Source: a virus. Taken from it: a stretch of 64,000 nucleotides of DNA. Both the position numbers and the translations under genes were made by a program. This document shows, in pieces, positions 4,550 through 39,627 of this stretch (its first letter is position 1; every line of letters begins with the position of its first letter). The stretch spans positions 1-64,000 of the IMG/VR virus record IMGVR_UViG_3300045988_118194. One strand, written 5' to 3'. The notes beneath the pieces are model-generated. The model ran no database searches. It was not told the DNA's origin and worked only from the letters and a program-made list of their open reading frames with translations.

Positions 4550-4753
4550 ATGACCGACAGAGAACTTCTTGAAGAAAACAATAAGATGTTAAAGGAAATT
4601 CTAAGTTTTGTGAGAAAAGTTGATTCTGCTGAATACAGGGATCATCAAGACTTTATGGAATTTCTTAGAAATGTGGCAGCCGATATATGGGTAGAATATA
4701 CGGAGCCTGAACAAAGAGGTAGATTGTTTAATTTAATAAATAAAAAGAAATGA
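4550..4753 (+). CDS. hypothetical protein (67 aa)
   Basis: ORF 6 nt after the previous stop. ATGA overlap with the next ORF. Confidence 0.3.
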   Translation: MTDRELLEENNKMLKEILSFVRKVDSAEYRDHQDFMEFLRNVAADIWVEYTEPEQRGRLFNLINKKK

Positions 4754-4935: not shown

Positions 4936-5011
4936 CCAACAAAACCACCATACTTTAGAAGGTGGATGAATTGGTTTGATTAATTTTGAATCAAAATTAC
5001 AGATAAAAAAA

Positions 5012-6151
5012 ATGATTTCATACAAATACAACATCTATCATTCCAAGAAAACGAAGTATCTCGACAAAATGCTTCGAGAATGTTGTTTTGTATGGAATCA
5101 TGCTTTAGCTCTACAACGTAGATACTACAAACTGTTTGGAAAATATATCTCAGTTAGTAAAATGAAAAAGCATTTTGCAAAAAGGATAAAAAGAAATCTT
5201 CTTCATTCCCAAACAGTGCAAGAAATACTTGAACGTCTTGATGAATCTTATAATCGTTTCTTCAAGAAATTGGCTAAACGACCTCCTAAGTTTAAATCAC
5301 CGGAAAAATTCAATTCTTTTGTATTCAAACAAGGTGGGTTTACCCTGAATGGTAATTGTTTAACAATTAACAAAGGGAAGAAACGATTTAGATTTTCATA
5401 CAGTAGAGTCTACGAAGGTAATGTTAAACAAATTAGAATAGTTAGAGAAACATGCTATCGATATAGCCTGATAATTATTACAGATCATAATCTTATAAAC
5501 TCTTATAGAAAGACACATGATGGTGCATCTATAGGGTTGGATTTTGGCCTGAAAACTTATCTAACTAAAAGCGATGGTAGCAAAATTGATTCTCCACTAT
5601 TCTTCAAACAATATCAAAACAAGATTAGAAAACTAAACAAACGGATTTCTAATGCAAAGAAAGGATCCAACAATAGAAGAAGGAGACTGTTTGAACTCCA
5701 ACAAACGTATCGTAAAATAAACGATCTTCGATCGGATTTTCAATGGGGATTAGCACACCAGTTATGCAAACAATATGATTATATTTTTATTGAAGATCTA
5801 AACATTGAAGGAATGAAGCGTTTGTGGGGAAAGAAAGTTTCTGATCTCAGTCATTCTTCTTTTATTGACAAACTTACGTATGTTGCTTCAAAGTATGGAG
5901 TAACGATACACAAGATTGACAAATGGTATCCTTCTTCCAAAACTTGCGAATGTGGCTGCATTAATAAAGGACTGTCGTTACGCGACCGCACGTGGGTATG
6001 CCCGTCGTGCGGAGCGGTAAACGACCGTGATGTTCTTGCAGCCCGTAATATACTTCGGAAGGGCATTTCCGAATTGGAGAGCAAGAGTAATTCCAGCGAT
6101 ATTAATATCGGGGTTTCTTGCGTTTGTATCCAAGAATCCCATTTGCTTTAG
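5012..6151 (+). CDS. tnpB: TnpB (OMEGA RNA-guided RuvC endonuclease, IS200/IS605 OrfB family)
   Basis: N-terminal KYNIYHSKK...CCFVWNHAL resembles the TnpB N-terminus. RuvC-I GLDFGLKTY. RuvC-II IFIEDLNIEGMK. Zinc finger CECGC...CPSCG. RuvC-III NDRDVLAARNI. The track ORF starts at TTG 4976; the first ATG is at 5012. Confidence 0.8.
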   Translation: MISYKYNIYHSKKTKYLDKMLRECCFVWNHALALQRRYYKLFGKYISVSKMKKHFAKRIKRNLLHSQTVQEILERLDESYNRFFKKLAKRPPKFKSPEKFNSFVFKQGGFTLNGNCLTINKGKKRFRFSYSRVYEGNVKQIRIVRETCYRYSLIIITDHNLINSYRKTHDGASIGLDFGLKTYLTKSDGSKIDSPLFFKQYQNKIRKLNKRISNAKKGSNNRRRRLFELQQTYRKINDLRSDFQWGLAHQLCKQYDYIFIEDLNIEGMKRLWGKKVSDLSHSSFIDKLTYVASKYGVTIHKIDKWYPSSKTCECGCINKGLSLRDRTWVCPSCGAVNDRDVLAARNILRKGISELESKSNSSDINIGVSCVCIQESHLL

Positions 6152-6200
6152 CGATGGGAGTGTGTCAACGGCATCGGTTTTAGAACCATAGAAGGTGCAA
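6000..6200 (+). ncRNA. putative TnpB-associated omega RNA (3' end of tnpB plus the right-end region). The extent is a guess.
   Basis: Expected position for a TnpB omega RNA. A hairpin at 6138-6158 overlaps the tnpB stop, followed by a 55-nt non-coding stretch before the next gene. Confidence 0.3.
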
Positions 6201-37018: not shown

Positions 37019-37324
37019 TTAATACAAATCTTCTGAATACAACTGTTCTCTAATGGCATTCCTATCTACCACCATCTCCTGATTATTGTTTCTAACAAGT
37101 TCAGACGCTTCCTCTCTTGTTAAAAACCGATTCTTGCTTGTCAAAAATCCTTGAACACTGCGGTTTTTATGGGCTATACCGTATGCCGCAAACTGAGAAA
37201 TGATAGAACAATGTCTCAATCCACAAAATACGGCGCCGGATGGTATATTGGTGGGCTGATGAGGACGCTTCTTGCCGTCCTGCACCCAGATGGCCGCGCA
37301 TATTACTATTTCTTTATTATACAT
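37019..37324 (-). CDS. hypothetical protein (101 aa)
   Basis: ORF 37 nt downstream of the iscB stop. Confidence 0.35.
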   Translation of the reverse strand: MYNKEIVICAAIWVQDGKKRPHQPTNIPSGAVFCGLRHCSIISQFAAYGIAHKNRSVQGFLTSKNRFLTREEASELVRNNNQEMVVDRNAIREQLYSEDLY

Positions 37325-37361
37325 GATACGTTTTTCTATTAAATTTATTAAATCCGTTCAT

Positions 37362-38582
37362 TTACTTTAATATAATCGGATGCCTCTTCCCTCTAATGAG
37401 TTTAAACTTTTTGCGTGAAACATCTTTTGAATTTTCTCCGTTGAAATCCCTGATATTGAAACTCCCTGATTTTCTCCTTCCATAAACAAAGAATATTTTA
37501 TTGTTATACAACACTTTATCAAACAACCTAAAACCGAAAACCTCAAAAGGAGCTTGATTGTTTTTCTTCTTCCCCCCTTTTAAAATTTTCATTTTATGTA
37601 TTTGTCTATTATGTCTACGAATTAAACGTTTTAAATATTGACGTTCGATTCGTTTCGCATTAATATTCTTAGAAATGACAAACGCGTCGGATGTATGGGA
37701 TTTTTCAATCCCATATTTAATCCGATTATGTTTCGTAATGTAACCAAACGTCATAAAAACTCTGTCGTATCTGGATTTTAACTCTTCATACAACCTCCAT
37801 TTCATAATTCCCATTACGGCTGCGTCGCGAAGCGACTTGCCTCTTCTGATCTTTAAATCTATATTACCTTTATGGTATTCTTTGTGACATGTTTCACATA
37901 AAGTTATAAGATTAGAAGGGGAATCCCCTCCGGTTTTTCGAGACTCAATATGATGAACATTCAGTATAGAATCTTTTGACTTGCCTTTACAATACTGGCA
38001 TTTATGTCCATCTCTTGCTAAAACATACTCCCTTGTGTTCCAAAACTCAAGTTGATCACCTTCCTGGTATTCTTTACCTGATATCTCAGGATTCTTAATC
38101 TTTTGAGTATCGAATTGAGCTACTTCAATAACAATACGAAATATTGGTAGTATAGAGCATACATTATCAATAACACGAATATGGGCGTCTATTTTGTACT
38201 TCACCGAAGGTGCTGTCCATCCTGGACGCTTGCTTTTTATTCTATTATTAAAACGAGGTTTTCTATATCTTAACCTGTTCCGTCTTGCTCTTCGTAGCTC
38301 CCTTCTGGTAGACAAAAGATCTACGATATCATTTCTAAGGATCACTTCACTACTGTAAAGTTCTTTGCTTTTCGTTGTAGCTGATAGACCAACATGCTTA
38401 GTTCCAGCATCAACGCCTAACACAATTTCTTGTTTGTAATCGGATGTGACGTACATTAATTTGATGGTAAACGGACATAGGTTCACAACGACTGCCTTTT
38501 TATCTTTAAGCAGTCTCCTAACCTTACCATGCCTCGTTGTTGGCATCATAGGTTTACCATTTATGTCTTGTACGTACACCAT
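37362..38582 (-). CDS. iscB: IscB (OMEGA RNA-guided nuclease; RuvC split by an HNH insertion; Cas9 ancestor family)
   Basis: N-terminal PLMP-like GKPMMPTTRHGKVRRLLK. RuvC-I VLGVDAGTKHVG. Arg-rich bridge helix RRELRRARRNRLRYRKPR. RuvC-II IVIEVAQFD. HNH HKCQYCKGKS...NVHHIESRKTGGDSPSNLITLCETCHKEYH. RuvC-III HTSDAFVI. Confidence 0.75.
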   Translation of the reverse strand: MVYVQDINGKPMMPTTRHGKVRRLLKDKKAVVVNLCPFTIKLMYVTSDYKQEIVLGVDAGTKHVGLSATTKSKELYSSEVILRNDIVDLLSTRRELRRARRNRLRYRKPRFNNRIKSKRPGWTAPSVKYKIDAHIRVIDNVCSILPIFRIVIEVAQFDTQKIKNPEISGKEYQEGDQLEFWNTREYVLARDGHKCQYCKGKSKDSILNVHHIESRKTGGDSPSNLITLCETCHKEYHKGNIDLKIRRGKSLRDAAVMGIMKWRLYEELKSRYDRVFMTFGYITKHNRIKYGIEKSHTSDAFVISKNINAKRIERQYLKRLIRRHNRQIHKMKILKGGKKKNNQAPFEVFGFRLFDKVLYNNKIFFVYGRRKSGSFNIRDFNGENSKDVSRKKFKLIRGKRHPIILK

Positions 38583-38930
38583 ATCTACAAACGTTTTTAA
38601 TGTTTATTCAACATAAATCAGGAATATTTCATCCTGTTAGTACCCATCGCCAATGTTATAAGAGGTTTACTTGCAGGCAACACTGTTTCACCAAATATAC
38701 TACTCCTGTTTAATCGCTTGCCTTAGGGCTACGGACTTGGGCAAACATCCGTAGGTAACTATCTATTCTCAAATAACGTAGCCTTCGTTTCAAGGCTTAG
38801 GCTAATATCCGGACCATTTATGGTACATTAAAACCTTATAATGAAATTATATTGTTTTAATGTTATTTCGGATATATATACTTTTTACCCCAATCGATTC
38901 TTTTTATCTTACGACCTAATTTAAGCCGTT
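38583..38930 (-). ncRNA. candidate IscB omega RNA scaffold (the guide is expected at its 5' end, the high-coordinate side)
   Basis: 358-bp non-coding gap immediately 5' of iscB, where IscB omega RNAs are encoded. Relatively GC-rich. Hairpin ctacgga-N12-tccgtag at 38719-38744 and gccttagg/aaggcttaggc complementary segments. Confidence 0.45.
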
Positions 38931-38940
38931 CTAAAGCCTG

Positions 38941-39627
38941 TTAGAATGTCATGCCACGACGAGGCAGTTTGAGATACTTTTTAAGTCTGTCGGCAGCTTC
39001 ATTTGGTGTATGGCCATCGTATTCGAAAGCGGTTTCTCTTTCAGGAACATCAAACAAATCCCAGTATTTGCTTTCATAGTGATTAGATACCTGACCGGTA
39101 GGTAGGATCGCCATCACAATAAACCAATCATCAGAACCGAAGCATTTTTCTCCGTCGCTGTGTCTCCTTGATTTGCAAACTTCAACCTGTCCGCTTCTGG
39201 CTAATAGATTAAAGAAGGCAGCGTTATACAACATGCTATACCGATACAATTCATTGAAAGTGTGGTATCCGTCAGAGACTTCTCCCACGTCTACAGGCTT
39301 CTTGTTTTGAATACTACCCAAAATGTTCTCTATATAGAGCTGTATTTTATACATACCCATTTCGGTGTGGCCGTATTTGTTCAAGATATTATTGACATCG
39401 TATTGTATATTAAAATCTTTTTCAAATTCTACTTCAGGATGATTAGGATAGTAGTAATCTACTGATGCTTCTAACACAGACTTGATATGCTCTACTATCC
39501 TCGCAACATCATCATGTTTAAAAAAATGCTTAAATCTTTCAACGAATTTAATATCTTCGTTGATTGCTGATTCGAACTCTTCTTTTGTCATTACTCTAGC
39601 CACATCTTTAAAATCTTTTAATTCCAT
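38941..39627 (-). CDS. hypothetical protein (228 aa)
   Basis: ORF. Confidence 0.45.
   Translation of the reverse strand: MELKDFKDVARVMTKEEFESAINEDIKFVERFKHFFKHDDVARIVEHIKSVLEASVDYYYPNHPEVEFEKDFNIQYDVNNILNKYGHTEMGMYKIQLYIENILGSIQNKKPVDVGEVSDGYHTFNELYRYSMLYNAAFFNLLARSGQVEVCKSRRHSDGEKCFGSDDWFIVMAILPTGQVSNHYESKYWDLFDVPERETAFEYDGHTPNEAADRLKKYLKLPRRGMTF

Follow-up and report, generated by a model that had tools for sequence, protein, structure and literature searches.

In the ISC elements of Geobacillus stearothermophilus (Meers et al. 2023), which are of the IS200/IS605 type, an omega RNA is encoded at one transposon end and takes its guide from flanking DNA, the motif adjoining the other end (transposon-adjacent motif) doubles as the target-adjacent motif (TAM) of the nuclease IscB, and most copies lack the transposase TnpA; retention or copying of the element driven by the nuclease has been proposed. 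In IS200/IS605 elements generally, TnpA and IscB share this motif, the omega RNA borders directly on the end of the transposon, and cleavage of donor joints by the nuclease restores the element (Meers et al.). A review likewise describes most ISC elements as lacking TnpA in cis. The catalytic residues of OgeuIscB, whose complex with omega RNA has been solved (PDB 7UTN, 7XHT), are D61, E193, H340 and D343 (RuvC) and H247 (HNH), and its PLMP motif occupies residues 14-17 (Kato et al., PMC9640706). Among phages, the free-standing homing endonucleases Seg and Mob of T4 are known for 'intronless homing' and marker exclusion, and 'non-restorative homing' into co-infecting phages has been put forward as a theoretical possibility in a 2026 review (PMC13565253). 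Here, we analysed a 64,000-nucleotide stretch of viral DNA (positions 1 to 64,000 of IMG/VR record IMGVR_UViG_3300045988_118194), hereafter the window, in which an omega RNA gene and an iscB gene form an element of 1551 bp (37325-38875, (-) strand). This is probably a non-autonomous, selfish element of the IS200/IS605 type (ISC/OMEGA, for obligate mobile element-guided activity), which homes between co-infecting phages. Its parts and immediate borders are as follows.

37362..38582, (-) strand: iscB gene, 406 amino acids (aa) including the stop, recognised from the list of open reading frames (ORFs) and from NCBIfam, Pfam and PDB matches
38600..38875, (-) strand: omega RNA scaffold, made up of the HEARO match at 38636-38875 and two terminal hairpins
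38619-38636 and 38600-38614, (-) strand: the terminal hairpins beyond the Rfam model, from folding and alignment
38876..38891, (-) strand: predicted 16-nucleotide (nt) guide GGGGTAAAAAGTATAT, flanking phage DNA and a remnant of Tad2-like coding sequence
37325..37361, (-) strand: 3' tail of 37 nt, ATGAACGGATTTAATAAATTTAATAGAAAAACGTATC, presumably the left end of the transposon, conserved across sites and stopping at the ATG where the next gene starts
37322..37324, (-) strand: ATG flanking the element, the putative TAM (transposon-adjacent motif), also the start codon of a 101-aa ORF (37019-37324)

The protein has the domain order of OgeuIscB (PLMP-type N-terminus, RuvC-I, bridge helix, RuvC-II, HNH, RuvC-III), followed by a C-terminal beta-rich tail. 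It scored 355.8 bits against the NCBIfam equivalog NF040563 (guided_IscB, 'RNA-guided endonuclease IscB'; cut-off 175), and the Pfam domains RRXRR, the N-terminal half of IscB, and HNH were found at residues 2-175 (3.4e-59) and 195-238 (4.6e-11), respectively. The best PDB matches were all IscB chains, namely OgeuIscB and engineered variants (1e-41 to 1e-43), after which came HfmIscB, TbaIscB, IsrB and Cas9 relatives. Residues D58, E153, H296 and D299 align with D61, E193, H340 and D343 of the OgeuIscB RuvC domain, and H211 aligns with H247 of HNH, the pair H210/H211 standing opposite H246/H247. The PLMP motif reads PMMP (residues 11-14), the arginine-rich bridge helix is RRELRRARRNRLRYRK (residues 93-108), there is no REC lobe, and two CxxC pairs (195/198 and 229/232) supply a Cys4 zinc site (C195, C198, C229, C232). 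The two proteins differ in length (406 versus 496 aa in OgeuIscB), only ~35-40% of the sequence aligns well, and the C-terminal ~60 aa, in the region of the TAM-interacting (TI) domain, have no detectable sequence similarity to OgeuIscB. With the exception of the TAM-interacting domain, all sequence-testable features that define IscB/OMEGA are present.

Intact ORFs of 400-410 aa were found in 67 of the 77 copies examined from related phages, while a frameshift or premature stop cut the ORF short in 5 of the 77. No variation was seen at the five catalytic residues (in 68 intact copies) or at the four zinc cysteines, and pairwise ratios of nonsynonymous to synonymous substitution (dN/dS) against the window copy are 0.05-0.21, at dS values of up to 1.3. 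The low dN/dS, the invariant residues and the 67 intact copies indicate that the nuclease is maintained by selection. The gene encodes a complete IscB, which, as judged from these substitution patterns, is under strong purifying selection. In-frame stops occur at codon 196 of L154, codon 5 of L128 and codon 41 of L152, related loci in which TAG and TAA stand at positions of glutamine (CAG/CAA) and TGA at a lysine position of the window protein. Recoding of TAG to glutamine is known in some crAss-like phages. The stop-bearing copies are most simply read as pseudogenes.

Upstream of iscB, a non-coding gap of 358 bp (38583-38940) separates it from the next ORF (38941..39627). The full 211-position Rfam model HEARO (RF02033, the IscB omega RNA) matches this gap at 38636-38875 on the (-) strand with 95.5 bits (gathering threshold 83, E=1e-19), which is the sole Rfam match at the IscB locus and in the whole 64-kb window. 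HEARO also exceeded the gathering threshold in 10 of 10 relatives tested (88.9-113 bits). The upstream region folds better than shuffled sequence (z-score -2.6), and across an alignment of 28 non-redundant variants three helices carry compensatory changes, as does a terminal hairpin that lies downstream of the stretch covered by Rfam. A further helix is formed between the first 7 nt of the scaffold and the 7 nt ahead of a conserved TAGCC; it changes from ATATCCG/CGGATAT to ATAATCG/CGATTAT between subfamilies, that is, by two double compensatory changes. As in OgeuIscB, the RNA is of the HEARO type, has a 5' guide and is encoded directly upstream of the nuclease gene.

A conventional protein-guided HNH homing endonuclease acting without an RNA guide, which is how PHROGs and GenBank label such proteins ('HNH endonuclease'), can scarcely account for this locus. 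This candidate was rejected: a PLMP domain, a bridge helix and the RuvC-I, II and III segments surround the HNH insert, and each copy has, immediately upstream, a full-length HEARO RNA supported by covariation. The preliminary description of this DNA, made from the sequence without database searches, had set the ORF apart from plain HNH endonucleases, had recognised in its 406 aa the hallmarks of IscB in their order and all the catalytic residues, and had proposed a candidate omega RNA in the hairpin-containing gap upstream; its reading is borne out in each of these respects, and its coordinates for the ORF and the gap are exact. It erred in calling the upstream region GC-rich, as the GC content there is 0.346 against a window mean of 0.382 (23rd percentile).

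The closest element-free relative is human gut phage csAssE-Sib (OR575929.1, 151 kb), which is ~95% identical to the window across most of the window length and has no IscB according to tblastn of GenBank phage records and its own annotation. In blastn comparisons, window positions 37328-38875 stand in place of 396 bp of csAssE-Sib. The alignment to element-free phage genomes that the preliminary description had suggested defined the guide-side end of the element (38875) and the guide flank (38876-38891), the other end (37325) being given by the conserved tail. Flank homology with IscB-less relatives stops exactly at 38876/38875, and 38875 is HEARO position 1; by this alignment, the first base of the omega RNA is the element boundary. 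Together, the HEARO match, the hairpins and the boundary place the omega RNA at roughly 38875-38600. The guide length of 16 nt is an assumption carried over from OgeuIscB, and within the window the guide GGGGTAAAAAGTATAT is matched perfectly only by its own site.

Copies at other genomic sites, among them L101, L104-107 and L108, carry the conserved tail too, and it ends at an ATG each time. At the left end, an imperfect AT-rich inverted repeat (37334-37352 / 37357-37375, 74% complementary) straddles the iscB stop codon, and the 37-nt tail folds no better than shuffles, so that a left-end hairpin is unconvincing; the right end is covered by P1 and the stems of the omega RNA. Insertion beside a short specific motif, with neither terminal inverted repeats nor a target-site duplication at the window site, is a trait shared with IS200/IS605 (ISC) elements. 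The tail (37325-37361) resembles the 3' end of a Cys-rich gene that precedes the same ATG in the naive, that is element-free, locus L003 (~6090-6138; AACGGA..AAATTTA.TAG). This local alignment is marginal (shuffle p ~0.02 for one allele, up to 0.24 and non-significant for others); were the resemblance real, part of the 'tail' would be flank DNA carried along.

At the window locus, all IscB-carrying genomes share the downstream junction, the ATG of the 101-aa gene. On the guide side, the omega RNA end abuts varied upstream sequences, which are colinear pieces of the same region at growing distance. Guide-side junctions were mapped on the element-free reference L003, and 11 distinct large junctions were obtained. 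They read as follows in naive sequence, with a slash at the junction point.

...ATATATTG/ATGGTA
...TATATCTGT/ATGTTT
...TTTGTTTGT/ATGTTC
...TTGCGGG/ATGAGT
...GGTTCTG/ATGATT
...ACTTTCA/ATGAAT
...TTGTTTTC/ATGTTT
...GAAATC/ATGAAA
...GATTGTG/ATGATT
...TTGTATC/ATGATG
...CCGAAC/ATGATA

In all 11 cases, an ATG directly follows the junction point in the naive sequence, at an ATG density of 2.8% of positions in the region (P~9e-18). When downstream flanks, large junctions and mapped guide-side junctions elsewhere were combined, ATG was present at 26 of 26 sites, a tally that leaves out two further ATG-adjacent junctions, and C occurred at position 4 in none. That ATG stands beside all large junctions, even those found in a single contig, points to an ATG rule that is mechanistic rather than purely selective. 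Taken together with the motif common to TnpA and IscB in IS200/IS605 elements, ATG at the junctions implies a predicted TAM of ATG(D) for this IscB, which differs from NWRRNA of OgeuIscB. The scaffold itself starts with ATA, so self and target would differ at the third base.

Besides the large junctions, there are small deletions of 4, 4, 6, 10 and 25 nt, by which the 3' end of the guide is lost and which stop exactly at the first base of the scaffold. Their carriers are L084/L085/L189 (junction ..GAGTTTGT/), L137, L143, L146 and the window at 38876. Self-cleavage at the initial ATA of the scaffold, slippage and selection are possible origins, and self-cleavage is a plausible cause of the 4-25-nt deletions. 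Ectopic homing through similar guides at different sites was also considered and rejected, as inspection by eye revealed no convincing similarity among ~13 guides.

The window copy belongs to a large family. At least 342 IMG/VR relatives of its IscB (82-98% aa identity) are found on ~80-160 kb contigs of the same phage group, several of which carry two copies. Thousands of related proteins in a large metagenomic protein collection are all on contigs of 160 kb or less, and the only name given to metagenomic relatives in any source is 'RRXRR protein [Bacteriophage sp.]'. The family occupies about a dozen or more genomic sites, with 13 distinct downstream flanks among the sampled contigs; each flank begins with ATG right after the tail, and with few exceptions this ATG starts a phage gene of the same orientation; all copies are co-oriented with local genes. 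The closest match from bacterial collections (88% aa) is L207, an L104-type copy on a 20-kb 'Vibrio olivae' contig of a marine isolate (NZ_JBHMEP010000019.1), which probably reflects contamination of the Vibrio assembly by gut phage. The next bacterial match (70%) is in a metagenome-assembled genome of Candidatus Phocaeicola and fits a Bacteroidales host.

The element is polymorphic in presence: csAssE-Sib and ~68 IMG/VR loci lack it, with flanks 97-100% identical. Of three loci that could be mapped to element-free sequence, none is a clean insertion; the DNA between two ATG-adjacent points, from 171 bp to ~2 kb, is replaced instead. Over the first 250 nt on the TAM side, IscB-carrying genomes are more similar to the window than naive ones (94% versus 86%), while beyond this distance, and all along the guide side, the two groups are equally diverse. 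With the difference limited to the first 250 nt, the element and a short adjoining tract appear to have moved between genetic backgrounds. As between a selfish passenger and a tool of the phage, a choice that the preliminary description had posed, these population data favour selfish homing.

Several other observations were made on individual copies. Two sites that are empty in the window, 6809/ATG...6992 (+) and 19316/ATG...19487 (+), are occupied in related contigs (the L129 group, L130/154 and L101), and their occupied alleles lack the 171-270 bp from the X/ATG point to the ATG of the next gene. In one subfamily, L104-L107, L111 and L114 (~4685-4709 and the tail), an imperfect direct repeat of ~17 nt, TAACGCAAAAA(T)AAGGAA, flanks the element, being present upstream of the scaffold and at the tail end before the ATG; it could reflect either a duplication of the target or an insertion beside the tail that an older copy had left. 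L093 and L095 (4700-5000) have chimeric omega RNAs, in which the 5' part belongs to a second subfamily (ATAATTGTG...) and the 3' part and IscB are of the window type, and share their locus and X/ATG junction with L094. These chimeras indicate that elements recombine with one another. In L089 and L091 (upstream of 5001), a deletion enters the scaffold and removes part or most of the omega RNA, with iscB intact; these are probably decaying elements.

The guide-side junction of the window copy is private. It reads ...AAAAAGTATAT/ATATCC, which is ...AAAAAGTATATCTGT/ATATCC minus CTGT; the latter, parental junction was found in three IMG/VR contigs and the window junction in none. We infer that the window copy derives from the '...GTATATCTGT/' variant through a 4-nt deletion. 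The parental guide is TAAAAAGTATATCTGT, and the naive allele reads ...GGGGTAAAAAGTATATCTGTATGTTT.... When the guide was searched against related phages, as had also been proposed at the outset, the window 16-mer was matched in 70 of 80 related loci, where it is followed by CTGT ATG. As CTGT precedes the ATG in naive loci, the window guide misses the register of the putative TAM by 4 nt.

The replicon is a ~150-kb crAss-like gut phage of lytic type. The annotation of csAssE-Sib includes crAss-type 'ring' and 'muzzle' proteins, BACON-type carbohydrate-binding proteins, a diversity-generating retroelement and two TnpB genes. The IscB locus lies within a co-oriented structural arm, and the gene for a structural protein of the virion (phrog_37651, 2140 aa) ends, in the same orientation, 1.5 kb downstream of iscB, but the immediate neighbours of iscB are small accessory ORFs. 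The placement of iscB inside a block of virion genes, as originally proposed, is thus right for the co-oriented arm and wrong for the adjoining genes. The 396 bp that the element replaces encode, in csAssE-Sib, the last 41 aa of a WDGH + Tad2-like protein and an entire 91-aa Cys-rich ORF. The Tad2-like domain is PF11195 (Thoeris anti-defence 2-like). Pfam detects both WDGH and Tad2-like domains in the csAssE-Sib orthologue and WDGH alone in the window gene; the fusion is also intact in the relative L001 (5748-6503). The remains of this gene in the window are the following.

38941..39627, (-) strand: truncated neighbour gene with the WDGH domain only, from Pfam and sequence comparison with csAssE-Sib
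38876-38940, (-) strand: remnant of the Tad2-like domain, from homology to element-free relatives

A stop codon, TAA in place of GAA, is present at 38941-38943, at the domain boundary of this gene. GAA was found in 68 of 68 naive loci, and TAA is confined to IscB-truncated variants (L036, L055, L059 and the window). By these comparisons, the predicted Tad2-like (anti-Thoeris-like) domain of the neighbour gene is cut off by the IscB element. A second OMEGA-type element is present in the window at 5008-6168. Its TnpB ORF (5012..6151, (+) strand) is 78% identical in aa sequence to one of the two TnpBs of csAssE-Sib, the latter genome is contiguous at the insertion point (131229/131220), and no Rfam RNA match at the gathering threshold accompanies the TnpB element.

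A mechanism of homing can be proposed from these data. IscB would bind the omega RNA, whose 5' ~16 nt would be transcribed from the flank (38891-38876), and the resulting ribonucleoprotein would cut double-stranded DNA that matches the guide beside an ATG(D) TAM. The target would be the element-free allele of a related co-infecting phage, at the guide sequence and ATG, and repair of the cut by recombination from the IscB-carrying genome would copy the element in, as in a gene drive. Such homing would overwrite accessory genes from the target to the ATG of the next gene. New guides would arise when the omega RNA end re-joins another upstream X/ATG site. The new junctions might be formed by TnpA-type chemistry provided in trans, through intramolecular right-end transfer or through a local hop and recombination between copies; alternatively, they might result from deletion and subsequent selection for drive-competent guides. 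The proposed homing would be functionally analogous to the intronless homing of T4 Seg and Mob, with which the element shares a nuclease gene wedged between conserved phage genes, presence or absence among relatives, a short co-converted flank and a target in the element-free allele. It differs from them in that the guide RNA is copied from the flank, so that specificity changes with the junction, and in that the protein families are unrelated save for the HNH motif.

Several results weigh against homing of this kind. The preliminary description had noted the lack of tnpA, and this holds well beyond the locus: with a validated IS608 TnpA query, phmmer and tblastn found no TnpA in the window or in 160 related phage loci, none is annotated in csAssE-Sib, and the surroundings (4 kb) of 22 bacterial relatives contain none. 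These negatives cover phage loci and the flanks of bacterial relatives; a TnpA could be encoded by the host. In cis, the element thus lacks the TnpA of an IS200/IS605 (ISC) element, and with it the transposase that might otherwise form new junctions. The short linkage tract could also be produced by ordinary recombination within the phage population, and the ATG(D) TAM is deduced from the junctions. Nor is a TAM-interacting beta-barrel domain clearly recognisable: the C-terminal 84 aa have no PDB sequence match at E<=10, the profile alignment ends near residue 348, and an AlphaFold2 model (from an alignment of 24 sequences in two clades, 51-96% identical) has a mean predicted local distance difference test score of 40, with low-confidence strands at 351-378. 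Finally, the guide of the window copy is off register with ATG and its junction is private, so the copy in the window could be without activity as a drive; it may quite possibly, at an estimate that reaches but does not pass evenly balanced, be a poor or dead drive despite its intact nuclease.

The window copy could, in particular, be a stranded relic, in which the 4-nt deletion at the guide-scaffold border disabled TAM-adjacent targeting and which is now inactive and bound to decay. Naive genomes have CTG, not ATG, after the guide match, the window junction is absent from IMG/VR while the parental one is found in three contigs, and decayed copies do exist (the scaffold deletions of L089 and L091 and the 5 shortened ORFs among 77). 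Against this, the ORF and catalytic residues of the window copy are intact, the scaffold is full-length, and the shifted guide could still find another site, depending on the stringency of TAM recognition. We regard this as a real possibility, albeit one we lean against. A use of the element as a weapon, with IscB-omega RNA cutting competing related phages during co-infection (an RNA-guided marker exclusion) and spread of the element as a by-product, appears unlikely. It would agree with a guide that, while lacking any second match in the window, is matched in 70 of 80 loci of related phages, with strong purifying selection on the nuclease, and with the competitive advantage of this kind that phage homing endonucleases are known to confer (review), but the same facts fit selfish homing equally well. 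Moreover, the element removes accessory genes of the phage, including the Tad2-like anti-defence domain, its guides aim each time at its own empty site and not at essential genes of competitors, and the window guide is out of TAM register.

Classical TnpA-dependent transposition is a further candidate. A TnpA acting in trans, from the host or from another element, would move the element by single-strand peel-and-paste 3' of CAT, which is ATG on the strand of iscB, and IscB would only restore donor sites; the nested guide-side junctions would be intramolecular right-end transfers or the outcome of a local hop and two-copy recombination. The ATG specificity at both ends, singleton variants included, the terminal TAT of the right end, which resembles the TAM CAT as in IS200/IS605, the lack of a target-site duplication and the TAM common to TnpA and IscB (Meers et al.) all agree with this explanation. 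It is nevertheless doubtful: searches of the window, the related loci and the flanks of bacterial relatives revealed no TnpA, and the annotation of csAssE-Sib contains none; the left-end hairpin is unconvincing, and no two-copy intermediate was seen at the window locus; and every mappable occupied site replaces DNA, with not one clean insertion among them. Selfish homing as set out above can itself be taken a step further. The copies would then be self-retargeting gene drives that work without a transposase, the omega RNA end being repeatedly re-joined to new X/ATG sites, with small guide-scaffold erosions in addition; each new guide would overwrite longer accessory DNA in siblings, and the ATG specificity would come from TAM recognition by IscB and not from TnpA. 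We consider this extension rather improbable.

Compared with the ISC elements of G. stearothermophilus, the window element resides on a phage replicon, TnpA is neither detected (64-kb window and fetched loci) nor annotated (csAssE-Sib), the mapped copies replace DNA between ATG-adjacent points, and the guide-side junction is highly variable among siblings. IscB in a phage is not unprecedented, contrary to what the preliminary description implied. The window protein falls in PHROG 119 ('HNH endonuclease'), 36 phage records in GenBank contain homologues by tblastn, among them those of Ralstonia, Staphylococcus, Clostridium c-st and Nodularia phages and of gut contigs, and HEARO has been listed in the literature among the non-coding RNAs of Silviavirus phages. 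In Clostridium phage c-st, a HEARO of 140 bits lies beside IscB and a truncated TnpA. The deposited phage loci (Staphylococcus Silviavirus/Kayvirus, Ralstonia, c-st) thus have IscB homologues annotated as HNH endonuclease, with HEARO where tested, but these are only 30-50% identical to the window IscB, mostly with a single tblastn match per phage, and neither an expansion to many loci nor a series of junctions has been reported from them. A literature search on csAssE-Sib and on IscB in crAss-like phages found no paper on IscB there or on such a junction series.

By itself, an IscB in a phage thus represents no new kind of system, as such genes already sit unrecognised in phage databases as 'HNH endonuclease'. 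What the present locus offers is a natural experiment, in which hundreds of sibling genomes of one abundant human-gut phage lineage are available with or without the element, and in which one locus has 11 different guides, each beside an ATG in the empty allele, with no detectable transposase. The predicted very short TAM (ATG) and the compact 406-aa IscB may be of practical interest for genome editing. For the phage, the locus presents an RNA-guided element that appears to erode an anti-defence gene; should the self-retargeting drives prove real, they would overwrite accessory DNA that includes the Tad2-like anti-defence domain. For the family at large, this lineage makes testable the role of the many IscB and TnpB copies that lack TnpA, and the way in which new guides are acquired.

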